In this document: in pieces, positions 3,136 through 62,968 of the stretch
Layout of the letters: every line of letters begins with the position of its first letter
Position numbering within the stretch: the first letter of the stretch is position 1
Source: a virus
Lineage: Duplodnaviria; Caudoviricetes
DNA: 64,000 bases
Virus record (IMG/VR): IMGVR_UViG_3300027760_000553
Location: 35,583 to 99,582 of that record
Direction: 5' to 3' (one strand)
The notes under the pieces: model-generated
What the model was told of the DNA's origin: nothing
The model's database searches: none
Seen by the model: only the letters and a program-made list of their open reading frames with translations
Position numbers and translations under genes: made by a program

Positions 3136-3792
3136 AACTTTGTTTAAATCTTCAAGGTATCTTGTATTAAAGCGATTGGCCCAGAAAGACTGATAAACAG
3201 TACCTTGGTCTCCATTGTCCTTTTTAATGGTTAGATGTGGGTGCTTATTTATTAAATAATTTATTTGACCTAGTTTTGGCTCTTGAAATCTTGTATCGAC
3301 ATACTGATATAAAGTATTCGGATTTTCAGCAATGTAATTTTTTACTTCTTTATCTAGATTAATAGGCCCATCATACTGCTGATTATCTGAACAAGTCCAA
3401 TAAAACTTTATATCTTTAAACTTATTTTCAAGTTCTACTAAACTATTAATAAAGTCTTCAAAAATAAAATCAGAATTTTGTACTTCTGAAAACAAAATAA
3501 AAATAACATCTGGAGAATATTCAGCAAAATATTCTTTTGCATTTTTTATAACATTTTTATAGTATATATCTTTATCATCTAATGCAAAAAAATCAGAAAC
3601 TAAAGTATGCTTTCTTAGTAGTTTGTCTAGTCTAAATGGCCAAACATTTTTAAAAGTTTCATCGTCATGCATTAGATCTGAAGATCCAAAATATACTACA
3701 TGTAGTTTACTATCATGATCCTTTTTAAATTCTTCACACATATAGCCATGAGTATTTTTTGTTCCATCATATTTGCTTAATACTTCTGTCAT
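3133..3792 (-). CDS. Hypothetical protein, possibly a divergent SGNH-fold protein
   Basis: HVVYFGSS and PDVIFIL segments resemble SGNH strands; catalytic residues not evident. Confidence 0.35.
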   Translation of the reverse strand: MTEVLSKYDGTKNTHGYMCEEFKKDHDSKLHVVYFGSSDLMHDDETFKNVWPFRLDKLLRKHTLVSDFFALDDKDIYYKNVIKNAKEYFAEYSPDVIFILFSEVQNSDFIFEDFINSLVELENKFKDIKFYWTCSDNQQYDGPINLDKEVKNYIAENPNTLYQYVDTRFQEPKLGQINYLINKHPHLTIKKDNGDQGTVYQSFWANRFNTRYLEDLNKV

Positions 3793-5228
3793 TTATTATA
3801 ATCCATTCCTGTTAAAATTTTAAAGTCGTATTCTTTTTCCCAATTTAAAATATCGTTGTTATCGTTTAATAAAGGTTGACCCTTAATATTCAGACTTGTA
3901 TTCAATAATAATGGTACACCTGTTTTAAGATAAAACTTATTAATAGTCCTCCACAAACCTCTATGCTGATGCTTGTTTACGGTTTGCACCCTAGATGTAC
4001 CGTCAGCATGGACTACAGATGGAATCTTTTCTGGTTGTAAACATTTAACTGTGTACTGCATATAAGGGCTTGCAAAGTCCATATCAAACCACTCAGAAGC
4101 ACACTCCTCCATAACTACTGGAGCAAATGGTCTAAACAACTCTCTTTGTTTAATTAAATTAACTTTATCTTTAATGTTTGGATCTCTTGGATCTGCAAGA
4201 ATACTTCTATTTCCTAATGCTCTTGGACCGTATTCTGCTCTACCTGATGCTACTGCCACAATTCCATCTTTTAATATACCGTCCACAATTTGCTGAACAG
4301 GATACTCTCCACCAAGATCGTACCCCAAGTATGGATCTTTCCACTCAATATGTTTTCCATATAGTGCTGCTGCTGCTCCCAAAGAACTTCCAGCATCTCC
4401 AGGGTTAGGCATGATCCAAATCATATCAAATATCTTCCAAAGTAAAGTATTTGCAGAAGAGTTTAACGCACATCCACCCATAAAAACCAAATTCTTTTTA
4501 CCAGTCATTCTTTGTGCCATACGCATAAAATCGTTAAGCCTTTGCTCGTATACCATTTGTACTGACGCTGCTATGTCAAATTTATCTTCTTCTGAAACCC
4601 ATCCCCAGTCAGTAATTCCCTTATGAAGGTTATATTTTTGTTGATCGTAATGTGGAAAATATTCATCTACCTTTTTGTAATACTTTGTCCAGTCTCCGTA
4701 TGCTGCCATACCCATCATAATATATTCTTCTTGGTTTGGCATAAGTCCAATCAACTGCGTGAAGGCTGAATAAAATAATCCAAAACTGACTGGATAGTTT
4801 TGCTTGTATTTTAACTTAATTTTATTTCCTTCACCTGTCCAAATTGTAGAAGTATTGTATTCTCCAATAGCATCTAGGACCACAATCACGGCATCATTAA
4901 AGTCACTGGTGTAGTAACCTGCTGCTGCATGGGAATAGTGATGACTAAAAGATTTTCTTGGAATACCAGGAAGTTCAAACCTTGGCTTCCATTCCCCAGA
5001 TCCACCCCTTAAAGCCAGTCTGGAGGCCTTTAGGAGGGGCTTTTCGTAGTAAGCAATGTGATCTGGTCTGCCGTACTGTAAAGCATCTTTTATTAAACTA
5101 TCATTCACATACCAATCATTTTTTTGCTTACTATATCTTTCAGCATGCCCTGCAAATAATATTTTTTCATCTTTAATTAAGGATACAGAAGCATCATGCG
5201 ATGTTTCATTTATTCCAAGAACTATCAT
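3789..5228 (-). CDS. Carbamoyltransferase (NodU/CmcH family)
   Basis: HDAS, ERYS, HHYSHAAA, DAIGE, MGMAAYG, GGCALN, GDAGSSLGAA, EYGPRALGNRSIL, RPFAP, HADGTSRVQ, LNTSLN. Confidence 0.95.
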   Translation of the reverse strand: MIVLGINETSHDASVSLIKDEKILFAGHAERYSKQKNDWYVNDSLIKDALQYGRPDHIAYYEKPLLKASRLALRGGSGEWKPRFELPGIPRKSFSHHYSHAAAGYYTSDFNDAVIVVLDAIGEYNTSTIWTGEGNKIKLKYKQNYPVSFGLFYSAFTQLIGLMPNQEEYIMMGMAAYGDWTKYYKKVDEYFPHYDQQKYNLHKGITDWGWVSEEDKFDIAASVQMVYEQRLNDFMRMAQRMTGKKNLVFMGGCALNSSANTLLWKIFDMIWIMPNPGDAGSSLGAAAALYGKHIEWKDPYLGYDLGGEYPVQQIVDGILKDGIVAVASGRAEYGPRALGNRSILADPRDPNIKDKVNLIKQRELFRPFAPVVMEECASEWFDMDFASPYMQYTVKCLQPEKIPSVVHADGTSRVQTVNKHQHRGLWRTINKFYLKTGVPLLLNTSLNIKGQPLLNDNNDILNWEKEYDFKILTGMDYNK

Positions 5229-5893
5229 TCTTCACCATTGGATAATCTTTTAGTGTCAAAATCAATATTGTGATACCAGTTTGGCAGAGCATATCTTGGA
5301 CCTTTTGTAACTGGATACACCTCATGAACATATAAAAAATTTGAAGGGAAAAACAAAATACTACCAGCAGCAGGTTTAAACTTAATTCCTGAATGTTTAA
5401 ATTCTATTTCTCCACCTTCATAATCATCATTGAGGTAAAGCAGCACGGATAAAACACGACTGCTGACACCCTGATCTTGATGGGCTGGAAGATGTCCACT
5501 TTCATCATATTTTAATAGATGCATTGTGTGTTCTCTAGACTTAATGTTTTTTTCTGCAAATGGATAAATTGCAGTTGAGTAGTGCTTTAATGTTGAATCT
5601 AACGCCCCAAATAATTCAGAAGATATACTTAACTGTTCATTAAAGTATGGGTCACAACTAGAAATATCTTTTACCTGTGGAATAAGTTTTTGCCAACAAA
5701 ACATAAGTTCATTTGAGCCATTGTTATACGTCCACTTTGTCCAAGGACCCACACACGTATCTTCCAACTGACCATCTTCAACATACATTTTGTCTAGATT
5801 TTCTATTTTTTCTATAATTGATTTAGGATCTTTAATTACATCTTTATAATAAACTAATCCTAAATCTAATATCTCAAAATTAAAGTTTTGCAA
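5225..5893 (-). CDS. 2OG-Fe(II) oxygenase (prolyl 4-hydroxylase-like)
   Basis: HQD, RVLSVLLYLNDDYEGGEIEF, FPS...HEVYPVTKGPRY; TTG start at 5893 follows an AAGGGAG RBS. Confidence 0.9.
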   Translation of the reverse strand: MQNFNFEILDLGLVYYKDVIKDPKSIIEKIENLDKMYVEDGQLEDTCVGPWTKWTYNNGSNELMFCWQKLIPQVKDISSCDPYFNEQLSISSELFGALDSTLKHYSTAIYPFAEKNIKSREHTMHLLKYDESGHLPAHQDQGVSSRVLSVLLYLNDDYEGGEIEFKHSGIKFKPAAGSILFFPSNFLYVHEVYPVTKGPRYALPNWYHNIDFDTKRLSNGEE

Positions 5894-6482
5894 GATGGTA
5901 CTCCCTTGCCATCCATTTAGGATTTTTTTCACCTATCATAAAGTCTGGATCTGCATGTTTTGGCAAACTTGTATGCATGTATAGGCCAGTAAATCTATGA
6001 CCGCTTGTTACTTCTGTAATGCCATGAATATATTCACTTCCAGAACTTGGAAAAAATACTGCAGAATATTGCTTTGGTTGATACTCAAATCCTTGATTTG
6101 GGAAATAAATTTTTCCTCCAGTGTATTCAGATTCATGGTTTAAATACATTATTGTGCTCCACTCAATAAAAGGTTCTGGGCCTTGAGCGTCTAAATGCAA
6201 CTCTCCCTTAGTGCCCTCTGTCCAATGTGAACCAAATGATTTGTATACATATATTGGGTTTAAAAAACCATTGTCTTGTCTGTGTACCTCATTTGAAATG
6301 TTTCCATACCTAACCATTATATCCATAACTATTTTATTATATGGTAATGATGTTCCTCCATATCTTTGTGCATAGTATGCGGGATAAGGATTTCTTTCTG
6401 CAAATGGATCTGTCTGCTGATCGATCAAAGTCTTTGCGTCTTCTGGACTAATAAAGTTTTCTATTATTTTTATTCTGTGCAT
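5880..6482 (-). CDS. 2OG-Fe(II) oxygenase (prolyl 4-hydroxylase-like)
   Basis: HLD, STIMYLN...GGKIYFP, HGITEVTSGHRF. Confidence 0.9.
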   Translation of the reverse strand: MHRIKIIENFISPEDAKTLIDQQTDPFAERNPYPAYYAQRYGGTSLPYNKIVMDIMVRYGNISNEVHRQDNGFLNPIYVYKSFGSHWTEGTKGELHLDAQGPEPFIEWSTIMYLNHESEYTGGKIYFPNQGFEYQPKQYSAVFFPSSGSEYIHGITEVTSGHRFTGLYMHTSLPKHADPDFMIGEKNPKWMAREYHLAKL

Positions 6483-8753: not shown

Positions 8754-9408
8754 TATATTCTTTCTTTATTTGCTCAATTGTTTCTGAATCTTTTATAATT
8801 ATATCACATATAGGAGTTCCTGTGTCTATAATGCCGTATCTTTCATCTTTCATGTGCTTACCACTTTTATTGATAAAAAAATGTATCCATTTTGTATCTA
8901 GTATGTGTTTTGAAAAATCAACCTTATTGAAATAAACAGTATCTGTTATTAAATTAAATACAGTTTCATCACCAAAATTATTTGATATTTTGCATTCAAT
9001 ATCTTTATTTATTAACCATGGAAGATAAAACTTATACAAGGCATTAAAACTAATATCTTGCTTATCGTAGGCGAGTTCCGATGGGTAGAACTGTCTTTGC
9101 CAACATTTGTCAAGTGCATAGAGTCCATTGTACTTTGGTTCAACCCAAATTTCGGCGTGAGTTTTTTGACGCAAAACAACATGATCATCATTAACAATTA
9201 ACTCTGGTTTATTATGAAATATTTCTGCATACCTATTTACTGGAACTAAAAATTTATTAATGTAACTTTGATCAAACACATGACCAGAGACTCCCCACTC
9301 TGGATAAAGTCTACTACCTATAACCAAATCAGAAAAACTTTTGTTAGCAGAATTAATCCAATACTCAGAACCAACTATGCCATTTTTGGATAAATCATCA
9401 TTTGGCAT
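8746..9408 (-). CDS. Hypothetical protein, possibly a distant paralog of 8022..8753
   Basis: YKFYLPW and GIIDTGTPICDI echo motifs of the neighbouring gene. Confidence 0.45.
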   Translation of the reverse strand: MPNDDLSKNGIVGSEYWINSANKSFSDLVIGSRLYPEWGVSGHVFDQSYINKFLVPVNRYAEIFHNKPELIVNDDHVVLRQKTHAEIWVEPKYNGLYALDKCWQRQFYPSELAYDKQDISFNALYKFYLPWLINKDIECKISNNFGDETVFNLITDTVYFNKVDFSKHILDTKWIHFFINKSGKHMKDERYGIIDTGTPICDIIIKDSETIEQIKKEYND

Positions 9409-10134
9409 TTAATTATCCTTAATAATAAAGTTACTAACAACAAGAACTATCCTTGTGTTATCATTTATTTGTTTTATTTTATCATGGTTTGCTACAAAAT
9501 CTATATCACCAATCACAGAAAACTCTGTAGGCAGTGTCATGTTGCAGCAAATTGCAATCTGCTTTTTTACTTTTTCAAAATTATAATTTTTAATTAAATA
9601 ATCAAGTACTTCCATAAGATTATCCGCATATAGTGGTGTTACAAATGACCCTGCAGTATCCTTATGTTTCTTTAAGTTTTCTATAACTGTATGGATACCA
9701 TGCGATATAGTGATATCTCCACCAACAAAGCCACTAATTACATAGGCATTAAGGAATGCGTTTGGTCCAGGTACAACCACATACTCAAAGTTATTTTTAA
9801 TGCATTCCTGAATAAACTGACTTCCTGGATCTGCAACCCCAATTAGACCTTCTGATGCTACAAGCAATACTGTTTTTCCAGATTCAATATATTCTTTGAA
9901 AAGTTTGATTTGATCTGGATCAGCATATGTTGAATCTTTGCTTTTTAAAACAACTATGTCTTTTTTAATTTTAAGTTGTTTTATTATGTTTATAGCATTA
10001 ATCTCTGAATCATCACTAAAAATAACATCTGAACTAACAAAATAGTCTAGCATTCTTTGAGACATATCGGAAATATTACCAATATGCATTGATCCAACAA
10101 TTAATTTACCACTCTTTGCTGAGGTGGCAGGCAT
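9409..10134 (-). CDS. rsmI: RsmI-like SAM-dependent (tetrapyrrole-methylase fold) methyltransferase; start codon uncertain
   Basis: GKLIVGSMHIGNISDMS, LVASEG...ADPG, VVPGPNA...SG; the nearest upstream in-frame ATG (10134) lies inside the tRNA. Confidence 0.7.
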   Translation of the reverse strand: MPATSAKSGKLIVGSMHIGNISDMSQRMLDYFVSSDVIFSDDSEINAINIIKQLKIKKDIVVLKSKDSTYADPDQIKLFKEYIESGKTVLLVASEGLIGVADPGSQFIQECIKNNFEYVVVPGPNAFLNAYVISGFVGGDITISHGIHTVIENLKKHKDTAGSFVTPLYADNLMEVLDYLIKNYNFEKVKKQIAICCNMTLPTEFSVIGDIDFVANHDKIKQINDNTRIVLVVSNFIIKDN

Positions 10135-10191
10135 CGATCCTGCGACATCCGAATTAACAGTTCGGCACTCTACCATCTGAGTTACACCCCA
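10119..10191 (-). tRNA. tRNA-Asn (anticodon GTT), 73 nt, CCA not encoded
   Basis: Cloverleaf: acceptor TGGGGTG/CACCTCA + G73; D arm ACTC/GAGT; anticodon arm CCGAA-CTGTTAA-TTCGG; T arm GCAGG-ATCGATG-CCTGC. Confidence 0.92.
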
Positions 10192-10198
10192 AAACCTT

Positions 10199-10984
10199 TT
10201 ATGCTGTTACTTTTACTGGCTTGCCAATAATAGATCCCACAGAAACATATTGTGCTGCAACAGATGCTGTAGCAGAAGATGTTGTTAGTGGAATAGTCTT
10301 AAACAGTGTTGATGAAAAGTTGTCACCAATCAAAGGTAGTCTGACAAGATTTGCAGAGTATTTAACTGATGTTGAATCAGCAAAACCTGGTGTAGTTACA
10401 GCATTGACTGATGAAAGACACGCTGGATAGTCAATCTTTGTGCTTCCAAATGTATTTCCTGCTGAGGCAAATACTTGAATTCCCTTAGAGTTAAGAGAAC
10501 TAATTAAGGATTTAATCATTGCATCTGCAGCATCAACTGTGTATGGTGCAGAAGATGATGGCATGCATGGCTTTGATGGACTATTAAAGTATCTTGAAAA
10601 TGATACTGCACCAATATTTTGAGAATTACTATCTACCCATTTTAAAGCCTCAATAAACATTACTGGTGTTACATCTGCAACAGACTTTGAACTTGCTGGT
10701 GCTGATCTAAGAGCAATAATTTTAATACTTGGGTTTTGACGCTTTGCAACTTCAACCATTGCATTGCCATGATTAATGTTATTTCCAATACTTGAATTTG
10801 TAATAGTAACAACATCTGTGCATGAAGATTTTGTTTCTACAACAATGCATGAAACATTTAAACCCGAAACCTTAGAATCAAAATAACTATCAATAATGAC
10901 AAGTGACTTTGAGTCTGCTCCATTTGCTTGAACTGGTACTACAACTGAAAATAATACTACTGCTAGTGCTACGATCTTTTTCAT
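10199..10984 (-). CDS. Secreted subtilisin-like (S8) serine peptidase
   Basis: Signal peptide MKKIVALAVVLFSVVVPVQANG; VIIDS (Asp), NHG (His), ASAGN (oxyanion Asn), TTSSATA (Ser); AAGGA RBS before ATG 10984. Confidence 0.7.
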   Translation of the reverse strand: MKKIVALAVVLFSVVVPVQANGADSKSLVIIDSYFDSKVSGLNVSCIVVETKSSCTDVVTITNSSIGNNINHGNAMVEVAKRQNPSIKIIALRSAPASSKSVADVTPVMFIEALKWVDSNSQNIGAVSFSRYFNSPSKPCMPSSSAPYTVDAADAMIKSLISSLNSKGIQVFASAGNTFGSTKIDYPACLSSVNAVTTPGFADSTSVKYSANLVRLPLIGDNFSSTLFKTIPLTTSSATASVAAQYVSVGSIIGKPVKVTA

Positions 10985-11001
10985 TTTATTCCTTTTCATT
11001 T

Positions 11002-11205
11002 TTACGATATCATCAATCTGACGACATGTTGGCATGGGTCGCCACCTGCTTCCCATTCTTCTGCTTCTTCTTCACCTATGTATTCATATCCACCATCATG
11101 GGTATTGCAATATGGTGGTGTTACCCAACCACGATCAATACCGTTTGACAACCAGATACCAAATTCTTGTTCTTCAGGTGACAAATCATCGTGTGTGTGA
11201 TTCAT
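11002..11205 (-). CDS. Small acidic hypothetical protein with C/H ligands
   Basis: WL..GI.RGW...YCNTHDG...GGDPCQHV; leaderless start (TATACT-N6-ATG). Confidence 0.65.
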   Translation of the reverse strand: MNHTHDDLSPEEQEFGIWLSNGIDRGWVTPPYCNTHDGGYEYIGEEEAEEWEAGGDPCQHVVRLMIS

Positions 11206-11220
11206 ACTTTAAGTATACTC

Positions 11221-11745
11221 CTAGATACTAACTACATCAACTGGCCCCATACATGATGGGTTAAATTTAATTGCAGCATTTACTGCTTGTACTACTCTAT
11301 TTCTTGCATTTTTTTGTTTATCTGTTGCATATAAAACACCGTAAGCATATTCTGCTCCAGAACCCATAGCAAGATATGGAAGTGTGTATTTAGATAAAGA
11401 CATATCTGCAGAACTGTGTTCATATATGTTTCCACGAACTGCAATGATCAAACCAAGGTCTCCATCTTTAGATGTGTCAACCCAGAACTCATTGTAGAAT
11501 TCACGAAGTTCTTTGATAAATTTTGTTTGCATGTGCTTGTCAGTATCTTTTAAGATTGGAGCAGTTGGTTTAAAGTTGTAACGAATTCTTTCTCCGTCCA
11601 TTGCACCAGCATATCCAATTAAGTATGGACCTATCTTCCAAACCTTTGGTGCTTCAAGTGCTAGAATGGTACCATCATCTGATGCTCCACGATCTCCAGC
11701 CATATAAATTTTATCTTCATGTCGTACAACTGCAATACAAGTCAT
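11221..11745 (-). CDS. HslV / proteasome beta-subunit-like Ntn protease
   Basis: N-terminal MTCI (Thr nucleophile), AGD, PK, AMGSG. Confidence 0.8.
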   Translation of the reverse strand: MTCIAVVRHEDKIYMAGDRGASDDGTILALEAPKVWKIGPYLIGYAGAMDGERIRYNFKPTAPILKDTDKHMQTKFIKELREFYNEFWVDTSKDGDLGLIIAVRGNIYEHSSADMSLSKYTLPYLAMGSGAEYAYGVLYATDKQKNARNRVVQAVNAAIKFNPSCMGPVDVVSI

Positions 11746-62440: not shown

Positions 62441-62449
62441 ATTTTATCA
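62441..62449 (-). promoter_or_regulatory. Extended -10 promoter TGATAAAAT
   Basis: 9 nt upstream of ATG 62431. Confidence 0.5.
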
Positions 62450-62968
62450 TACTATGCGGGTAAACCATCTTGGAAGTGCATATCTATTTAAGCCAGTAAT
62501 TTTTTTTACACCGTGCATAAAAGAGGGGTTATCTGGAAAAGCAATCATATCTCCAGTCTTGGGTTTAATCTCTATATCATGGTCTGGGAAATAAATTTCT
62601 CCACCACCATAATTATCATTTAAATATATTAGTGTTGCAATATCATTTGGTCTAGATGTATCAAAATGTGCTGGCATATCTGCACCTATATCAAATTTTG
62701 AAATATGTGTCTTTCTTTCTAAAAAATCTTGAAATGGTCCTTCATAGTCTTCAACTATTTGACTGTATGTTTTTTTTGCAACATTTTGCAATAAACTTAT
62801 TACATTTACATCATTTTTTGAAATTTCCTGAAACGTTTGTATTTTAAAATAATCTATATGCTCATATTTAAAAAAAGAACTATCTGTTTTTTTTGAATAA
62901 TCATATATGATTTCTGCAAGTTCTGAACTAATAAAGTTTGGATAAATTTTTATTAAATCTGAACTCAT
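62447..62968 (-). CDS. 2OG-Fe(II) oxygenase (prolyl 4-hydroxylase-like)
   Basis: HFD, ATLIYLNDNYGGGEIYFP, HGV.....RY. Confidence 0.88.
   Translation of the reverse strand: MSSDLIKIYPNFISSELAEIIYDYSKKTDSSFFKYEHIDYFKIQTFQEISKNDVNVISLLQNVAKKTYSQIVEDYEGPFQDFLERKTHISKFDIGADMPAHFDTSRPNDIATLIYLNDNYGGGEIYFPDHDIEIKPKTGDMIAFPDNPSFMHGVKKITGLNRYALPRWFTRIV

Follow-up and report, generated by a model that had tools for sequence, protein, structure and literature searches.

The DNA analyzed here is a 64,000-nucleotide stretch (the window) that comprises bases 35583-99582 of a 99,582-base virus record in IMG/VR (IMGVR_UViG_3300027760_000553; Duplodnaviria, Caudoviricetes), rated about 90% complete. It carries a tRNA-Asn(GUU) gene on its minus strand (10119..10191) in which the third pair of the acceptor stem is the wobble G3·U70, best known as the major identity determinant of alanine tRNAs. 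Our results suggest, with moderate confidence, that the tRNA-Asn is a working one and that this pair is a nearly neutral intermediate, recurrent and tolerated, in the compensatory evolution of its acceptor stem. We base this reading on five features of the gene family: pair 3:70 varies among relatives, the closest relative has C70, the G·U state recurs, otherwise identical G-C and A-U alleles exist side by side, and U1-A72 and G73 are invariant. A G·U pair that appears as a minority beside G-C and A-U alleles bears the signature of a transit state and not of a selected end state. A sequence-only reading of the gene had proposed a mixed asparagine/alanine identity, with a simply tolerated variant as its fallback. 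It is the fallback that our comparison favors, because C70 is found in most relatives, including the closest one, because G·U lies between otherwise identical G-C and A-U alleles, and because the phage has no accessory gene that would go with a second identity.

The gene itself is unambiguous. When run over the entire window, ARAGORN called a single tRNA, a minus-strand tRNA-Asn(gtt) at 10118-10191, and the Rfam model RF00005 matched from 10191 to 10119 with 60.6 bits (gathering score 29; E 1.2e-10). The match covers model positions 1-71 of 71 and is not truncated, which identifies the element as a member of the tRNA family; the gene is 73 nucleotides long and does not encode CCA. As read from the sequence, the acceptor stem consists of U1-A72, G2-C71, G3·U70, G4-C69, G5-C68, U6-A67 and G7-C66, followed by the discriminator G73 (10119, minus strand). 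G3 is located at 10189 and its wobble partner U70 at 10122, where the plus strand has an A. The anticodon G34-U35-U36 (10156..10158, minus strand), on which ARAGORN, Rfam and the sequence agree, sits in the loop CUGUUAA with U33 in place, and the T-loop reads AUCGAUG. The sequence-only reading had described the first four acceptor pairs, the discriminator and the anticodon correctly in every base and left only the strand unstated. The canonical 7/5 cloverleaf is the minimum-free-energy fold of the U70 allele, at -23.9 kcal/mol (computed on locus L081, which has the identical sequence). The C70 allele of locus L042 also adopts the cloverleaf at minimum energy, at -26.9 kcal/mol, so that U70 costs about 3 kcal/mol.

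Bacterial tRNA-Asn identity resides in the anticodon and G73, while U1-A72 is read by GatCAB, which converts Asp-tRNA-Asn to Asn-tRNA-Asn (PMC9976931). The anticodon GUU, G73 and U1-A72 are all present in the window tRNA, which departs from the typical bacterial tRNA-Asn in having a G·U at 3:70 and an A54, in being phage-borne and in lacking an encoded CCA. With tRNA-Ala it shares G3·U70, placed between G2-C71 and G4-C69, but it has G73 instead of A73 and the Asn anticodon GUU instead of NGC, the anticodon being ignored by AlaRS but defining the isoacceptor; of the pairs G1-C72 and G2-C71 of tRNA-Ala, it has the second, whereas its pair 1:72 is U-A. The rules on which the earlier proposal was built, namely that G3·U70 is the major determinant for alanyl-tRNA synthetase (AlaRS) and U1-A72 a determinant for GatCAB, agree with the same source (PMC9976931).

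To place the wobble in the context of related phages, we combined 34 IMG/VR stretches that contain an exact 39-nucleotide core of the tRNA with 80 syntenic loci retrieved via the 285-amino-acid protein encoded next to it, which gave 114 loci. ARAGORN called 247 tRNAs in this set, and 92 of them are tRNA-Asn(GTT), retained more widely than any other tRNA in these phages. Pair 3:70 is of the Watson-Crick type in 85 of these 92 genes, mostly as G-C, and G3·U70 in the remaining seven, which represent five contigs that all have the window's own acceptor sequence. The closest relative (L042/L015), whose flanks are 94.1% (1 kb downstream) and 97.7% (1 kb upstream) identical to those of the window, has the same tRNA except for C70. 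The other U70 contigs are more diverged, with upstream flanks that are 67-83% identical and downstream flanks without detectable similarity. A tree of 53 rows built from 1.24 kb of upstream flank requires a minimum of three changes for U70, with the caveat that, phages being mosaic, this tree does not trace the history of the tRNA itself. Within the tggggtg acceptor type, all four combinations of G60 or A60 (in the T-loop) with C70 or U70 exist, and each U70 allele is one step away from a C70 allele; owing to phage mosaicism, recurrent mutation and the recombination of one allele are inseparable within this background. Among 55 metagenome stretches, two have U70 and 53 have C70. The sequence-only reading had held that its proposal would fall if relatives and raw reads showed C70. 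Most relatives indeed do, but U70 is a real allele, found on four backgrounds and in several independent assemblies.

Logan contigs of four public runs were compared with the window across 9700-10700, and those of two runs bear out the reality of U70. The contig of run X1 (5.1 kb), which may be the source sample, spans 9700-10186 with 0 differences, and that of run X10 (1.8 kb), which belongs to another study, spans 9701-10163 with 18 differences, none of them listed at 10122; this position sits 42 nucleotides from the end of the X10 contig, and the listed differences include some at a distance of 36 nucleotides from an end. The contig over 10122 in runs X4 and X5 stops 22 nucleotides past it and has 11 differences, one of them not itemized, so that these runs speak neither for nor against U70. 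The same U70 tRNA is found in six other IMG/VR contigs, which carry six metagenome ids, and in JGI contig L172. That the window tRNA differs from its closest relative by one base only would fit a sequencing or assembly error at position 70, but the repetition of U70 in the X1 and X10 contigs, the six IMG/VR contigs and L172 makes such an error scarcely credible. All of these states are read from contigs, which hide minority variants.

A wider scan of IMG/VR, in which only the T-loop signature and U70-C71-A72-G73 were fixed, revealed how pair 3:70 varies across the family. It returned 69 stretches (six known and 63 new), which comprise 17 tRNA-Asn with G·U, 33 tRNA-Asn with A3-U70 and 19 stretches without a tRNA call. 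The pattern lies inside a called tRNA in 44 of the 63 new stretches, and every one of these is a tRNA-Asn(GTT), 33 with A3-U70 and 11 with G3·U70. The 11 new G·U genes have the acceptor strands tggtctg/cagatca (four), tggtcca/tggatca (four) and tggcgtg/cacgtca (three), so that G·U is found on four acceptor backgrounds (tggggtg, tggtctg, tggtcca and tggcgtg), each with G-C counterparts and tggtctg also with an A-U counterpart. The C70 version of the scan returned at least 120 stretches in IMG/VR, and among the matches listed, 102 of the 103 called tRNA-Asn genes in new loci have G3-C70. After pooling of the loci, with each distinct ±100-nucleotide context counted once, we obtained 175 tRNA-Asn genes, in which U1-A72 (175/175) and G73 (175/175) are invariant and G2-C71 nearly so (173/175). 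Pair 3:70 is G-C in 134 of them, A-U in 25, G·U in eight, C-G in seven and mismatched in one; these numbers are shaped by the search patterns and do not represent frequencies.

Two allele pairs, tggccca/tgaccca and tggtctg/tgatctg, differ only in having G3-C70 or A3-U70, which implies passage through a half-changed pair and shows that the step from G-C to A-U was crossed more than once. G·U is the half-way state to be expected on this route; an A·C pair at 3:70, the other conceivable one, was not seen in the family loci. The recurrence of U70 is supported by the three stem backgrounds other than tggggtg. We also considered a single origin of U70; it is opposed by the minimum of three changes on the flank tree together with these three further stem backgrounds. 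As a separate observation, three of the G3·U70 loci on the tggcgtg background (L211, L214 and L223) have C33 where U33 is near-universal, in an anticodon loop that reads CCGUUAA.

Apart from this pair, Watson-Crick pairing prevails in the stems of the family. Across 35 distinct family sequences with 21 stem pairs each, only seven of 735 cells are wobble pairs, three of them at 3:70, and two of 735 are non-pairs. The stem pairs switch among GC, CG, AU and UA, so that the cloverleaf is backed by compensatory changes, and stems that change by compensatory double substitutions point to selection on structure. Judging from these alignments, wobble pairs are rare transit states in this tRNA-Asn family. 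By contrast, wobbles are common in the acceptor stems of the other tRNAs of related phages, at 50 of 707 cells, and four of the five other tRNAs of the phage itself have one: tRNA-Asp G2·U71, tRNA-Met(CAT) G1·U72, tRNA-Glu G1·U72 and tRNA-Arg U4·G69 (G000:C1 15791-15865 and 26720-27084, outside the window).

These data also bear on the idea that the gene is decaying or non-functional and that the wobble reflects relaxed constraint on an unneeded tRNA. Such a scenario could draw on the A54 in the T-loop, on the lack of an encoded CCA and on a stem that is about 3 kcal/mol weaker with U70, but we consider it very unlikely. The Rfam score of 60.6 bits extends over the full length of the model, the tRNA is the most widely kept one of its group (92 of the 247 tRNAs in the 114 loci), and its stems change in a compensatory fashion with no more than seven wobbles and two non-pairs in 735 cells. 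The unusual T-loop is likewise no sign of erosion. At 10132-10138, it reads A54-U55-C56-G57-A58, with A replacing the near-universal U/T54. The corresponding motif GGATCGA is found in 41 of 58 tRNA-Asn genes and in none of 91 other tRNAs in the loci retrieved via the neighboring protein (L041-L120), which marks A54 as a trait conserved within this family of tRNA-Asn genes.

If the wobble is a tolerated intermediate, the tRNA would be cut from a transcript in which it lies between two genes of a long minus-strand array, and its CCA end would be added by host enzymes, since CCA is not encoded. Asparagine charging would then be achieved by host asparaginyl-tRNA synthetase, or by a non-discriminating aspartyl-tRNA synthetase followed by GatCAB; the indirect route is used by most bacteria, mycobacteria included (PMC7541841). 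The charged tRNA would read AAU and AAC, which are abundant in the phage. The wobble would have arisen by a single C70-to-U transition from G3-C70, the usual state of the family, and would represent a slightly destabilizing step on the path from G-C via G·U to A-U that the family has taken repeatedly. We infer expression and processing of the tRNA and charging mainly with asparagine; host AlaRS would charge it, if at all, too weakly or with too little harm for the allele to be purged.

The principal alternative is a dual identity, in which host AlaRS would charge a sizeable share of the tRNA with alanine and AAU and AAC would be read partly as Ala during infection. This could be tolerated by a phage that needs its cell only briefly, or it could be useful by generating a statistical proteome or by damaging host proteins. 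We regard it as a possible but distinctly less probable explanation. Several points argue in its favor and weigh against a neutral intermediate. In the window tRNA, G3·U70 is flanked by G2-C71 and G4-C69, as in E. coli tRNA-Ala. The pair has been reported to be sufficient for Ala acceptance by other tRNAs (PMC9976931; PMC7954030; PMC11415595), and G73 in place of A73 is reported to modulate E. coli AlaRS without blocking it (PMC6451123). Given these reports, some alanylation of the U70 tRNA in vitro appears likely by analogy, and partial charging by host AlaRS is plausible on the same grounds. There are also precedents for natural and spontaneous G3:U70 tRNAs that insert alanine: the C70U variant of yeast tRNA-Pro(UGG) does so at about 3% (PMC7954030) and is known from spontaneous suppressors (PMC5389508; PMC7954030), human G3:U70 variants are known for tRNA-Pro, -Cys, -Thr and -Gly (PMC11415595), and G3:U70 allo-tRNAs used as amber suppressors enable efficient amber translation in E. 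coli (Mukai et al., PMC5389517). In addition, the recurrence of G·U at 3:70, with at least three changes on the flank tree and four backgrounds, can also be read as selection, and none of the 55 metagenome stretches has a wobble at 2:71, 4:69 or 5:68. The persistence of U70 alleles across genomes whose flanks are only 67-83% identical indicates that they are not quickly purged. Moreover, the gene is the sole tRNA-Asn of the phage record, which contains no tRNA-Ala, and the neutral reading is itself drawn from the distribution of alleles.

Against a dual identity stands, above all, the minority status of G·U, which occurs beside G-C and A-U alleles of this tRNA. The anticodon is unaltered and the Asn determinants are all intact, so that the cognate enzymes would compete with AlaRS for the tRNA. 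U1-A72 may further weaken charging by AlaRS, by analogy with G1·U72, which blocks the E. coli enzyme on a mitochondrial tRNA-Ala (PMC9976931). Finally, no accessory gene accompanies the tRNA: searches of the 99.6-kb record for AlaRS, for the core of the Asp/Asn/Lys-type (class-IIb) synthetases and for AlaX-type editing domains gave no match, while each control matched 14 of 14 genomes. Since the phage lacks all three, charging must rest on host enzymes. A more specific proposal, in which G3·U70 was gained repeatedly since partial alanylation by host AlaRS is useful to the phage and a fraction of AAU and AAC codons is read as Ala in infected actinobacterial cells, strikes us as improbable.

It is also conceivable that the G3·U70 helix serves a purpose outside translation, either by diverting host AlaRS, or editing factors that read this pair, as a decoy or sink, or by donating Ala to a tRNA-dependent transferase. 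G3·U70 is indeed read by AlaX and DTD as well (PMC9976931; PMC11415595), and the presence of the pair is what speaks for such a role. Nevertheless, we consider it extremely unlikely, as the same locus has G-C or A-U alleles in most relatives and neither the record nor the neighborhood of the tRNA yielded a gene for a transferase, a synthetase or an editing factor; a Pfam scan of 51 open reading frames (ORFs) of the window likewise detected no synthetase.

Our controls show that G3·U70 is unusual outside tRNA-Ala, but not unique to it. In Gilson, a cultured Streptomyces phage, one of 31 tRNAs has this pair, namely its tRNA-Ala, and none of the other 30 does; the tRNA-Asn of Gilson combines U1-A72 and G73 with C3-G70. 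In the pooled viral loci, counted by unique context, G3·U70 is present in five of five tRNA-Ala and in three of 433 tRNAs of types other than Asn and Ala. Thus, all six tRNA-Ala from Gilson and the viral loci have G3·U70, and five of the six also have A73. The three exceptions (L221, L298 and L292) comprise two tRNA-Leu(UAG)-like genes with A73 and a tRNA-Trp(CCA) with G73. Another viral contig (L225) encodes a tRNA with the amber-reading anticodon CUA, labeled 'Pyl' by ARAGORN, which may be a suppressor.

G3:U70 in non-alanine tRNAs is thus already known from yeast, humans and the bacterial allo-tRNAs, and the window adds a phage tRNA-Asn whose allele is uncommon but can be explained. Like the yeast and human variants, this tRNA is a single C70-to-U step away from G3-C70 and keeps its own anticodon. 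Those variants are eukaryotic and have been shown to mistranslate, whereas here a phage tRNA in a bacterial host, known from its sequence, represents one state of a G-C/G·U/A-U series. The bacterial allo-tRNAs resemble it in being natural prokaryotic tRNAs that combine G3:U70 with a non-Ala anticodon, but they have an 8/4 or 9/3 acceptor/T-stem architecture (PMC5389517), in contrast to the canonical 7/5 cloverleaf of the window tRNA. A further parallel is tRNA-ProX of Streptomyces and Kitasatospora, one member of which has an Asn anticodon: it shares the actinobacterial setting and a discordance between acceptor and anticodon identity (PMC11415595). tRNA-ProX, however, has Pro identity, A34 (AUU for Asn), A33 and other oddities, whereas the window tRNA has G34, U33 and Asn identity. 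Nor is the tRNA-ProX arrangement of a synthetase gene next to an odd tRNA with A34 found here, given G34 and the lack of a synthetase in the phage record. In the literature covered, which was available in part and without supplements, we found no report of a phage non-alanine tRNA with G3:U70 or of a virus-imposed sense-codon ambiguity via the alanine operational code, which is a slight indication that the former may be unpublished so far.

The broader interest of this family lies in a rule that it does not follow. According to a review, non-alanine tRNAs show a relative avoidance of G3-C70 and A3-U70, because a single mutation from either pair would create Ala identity (PMC7954030). A phage tRNA-Asn family whose main state is G3-C70, which also has A3-U70 and repeatedly G3·U70, is a counter-example to this stated avoidance. 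Either host AlaRS is kept off by U1-A72, G73 and competition from the Asn enzymes, or a certain level of Asn-to-Ala error is tolerated by these phages. With a difference of one base, the two natural alleles, U70 and C70, form a clean pair for gauging the Ala identity conferred by G3·U70 alone in bacteria. If there is no alanylation, the pair is an ordinary tRNA polymorphism; if a selected dual identity were true, it might be the first case of a virus-imposed sense-codon ambiguity via the alanine operational code.

Seen in its genomic context, the tRNA fits the usual picture of codon supply. The record has a G+C content of 35.6% and six tRNAs: Asp GTC, Met CAT, Gly TCC, Glu TTC, Arg TCT and Asn GTT. 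Asn accounts for 6.3% of 26,087 codons in 88 ORFs, with AAT (1154) outnumbering AAC (489) 2.4-fold, and the codon families served by the six phage tRNAs favor A- or U-ending codons, apart from the single-codon family of Met. The tRNA set and the codon bias are thus consistent with the codon-supply reading. The tRNA is bordered upstream by the gene of the 285-residue protein used as query for the syntenic relatives (10199..11056, minus strand), which matched no family, and downstream by a gene with a tetrapyrrole-methylase-superfamily fold (PF00590; Pfam 4.1e-10 over residues 32-225 of the long ORF). The latter is assigned to 9409..10089 on the minus strand, although its longest ORF extends to 10176. 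The methionine at residue 30 of this ORF corresponds to an ATG at 10089, 30 nucleotides past the tRNA, and is the likelier start because the longest ORF would overlap the tRNA by 58 nucleotides. A promoter and terminator scan of 9300-11300 returned nine promoter-like sites against 9.0 expected, none of them placed to serve the tRNA, and no terminator of its own was apparent; hence, nothing indicates that the tRNA has a transcription unit to itself.

The carrier is an AT-rich freshwater tailed phage, probably of actinobacteria, with a genome of about 100 kb, as judged from its gene content and sampling record. All genes of the window lie on the minus strand; they include those for a terminase, a portal protein, a prohead protease and a 3,182-residue tape-measure protein, and for the replication proteins DnaE-type polymerase, primase, DnaB and RecA. 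The terminase (54-55% identity) and portal protein (48-49%) resemble those of large Streptomyces siphoviruses such as Gilson, and a WhiB-family gene is located outside the window (G000:C1 33583-33867, minus strand; 44.5 bits). The control search for this family matched only Corynebacterium among 14 reference genomes. It is the WhiB-family gene and the similarity to Streptomyces phages that point to an actinobacterial host. Among the matches listed, all runs that contain the phage bear a freshwater, lake, aquatic or plain metagenome label. When species genomes were scanned on the basis of WhiB, the result was four contigs of metagenome-assembled genomes (MAGs), two in one Acidimicrobiaceae MAG, one in Saccharibacteria and one in Chitinophaga, which are probably phage fragments that were binned with them. 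As the MAG labels disagree and the contigs are probably of phage origin, we name the host no more closely than probably actinobacterial. Comparison with GenBank phages by blastn, both with the tRNA and with the 5 kb around it, retrieved only distant tRNA matches of at most about 84% identity and no close relative.

Several other genes in the window merit mention. A NodU/CmcH-type carbamoyltransferase gene (PHROG 1601, 2.7e-104) and three 2-oxoglutarate/Fe(II) (2OG-Fe(II)) oxygenase genes are encoded on the minus strand at 3789-5228, 5225-5932, 5880-6482 and 62447-62968; they may be auxiliary or modification genes. Close to the tRNA, a gene for an HslV/proteasome-like peptidase is present at 11221-11745 on the minus strand (PHROG 1040, 1.9e-22; Pfam Proteasome, 4e-05), and the protein that it encodes is 91-94% identical along all 174 residues in several relatives that are diverged elsewhere.

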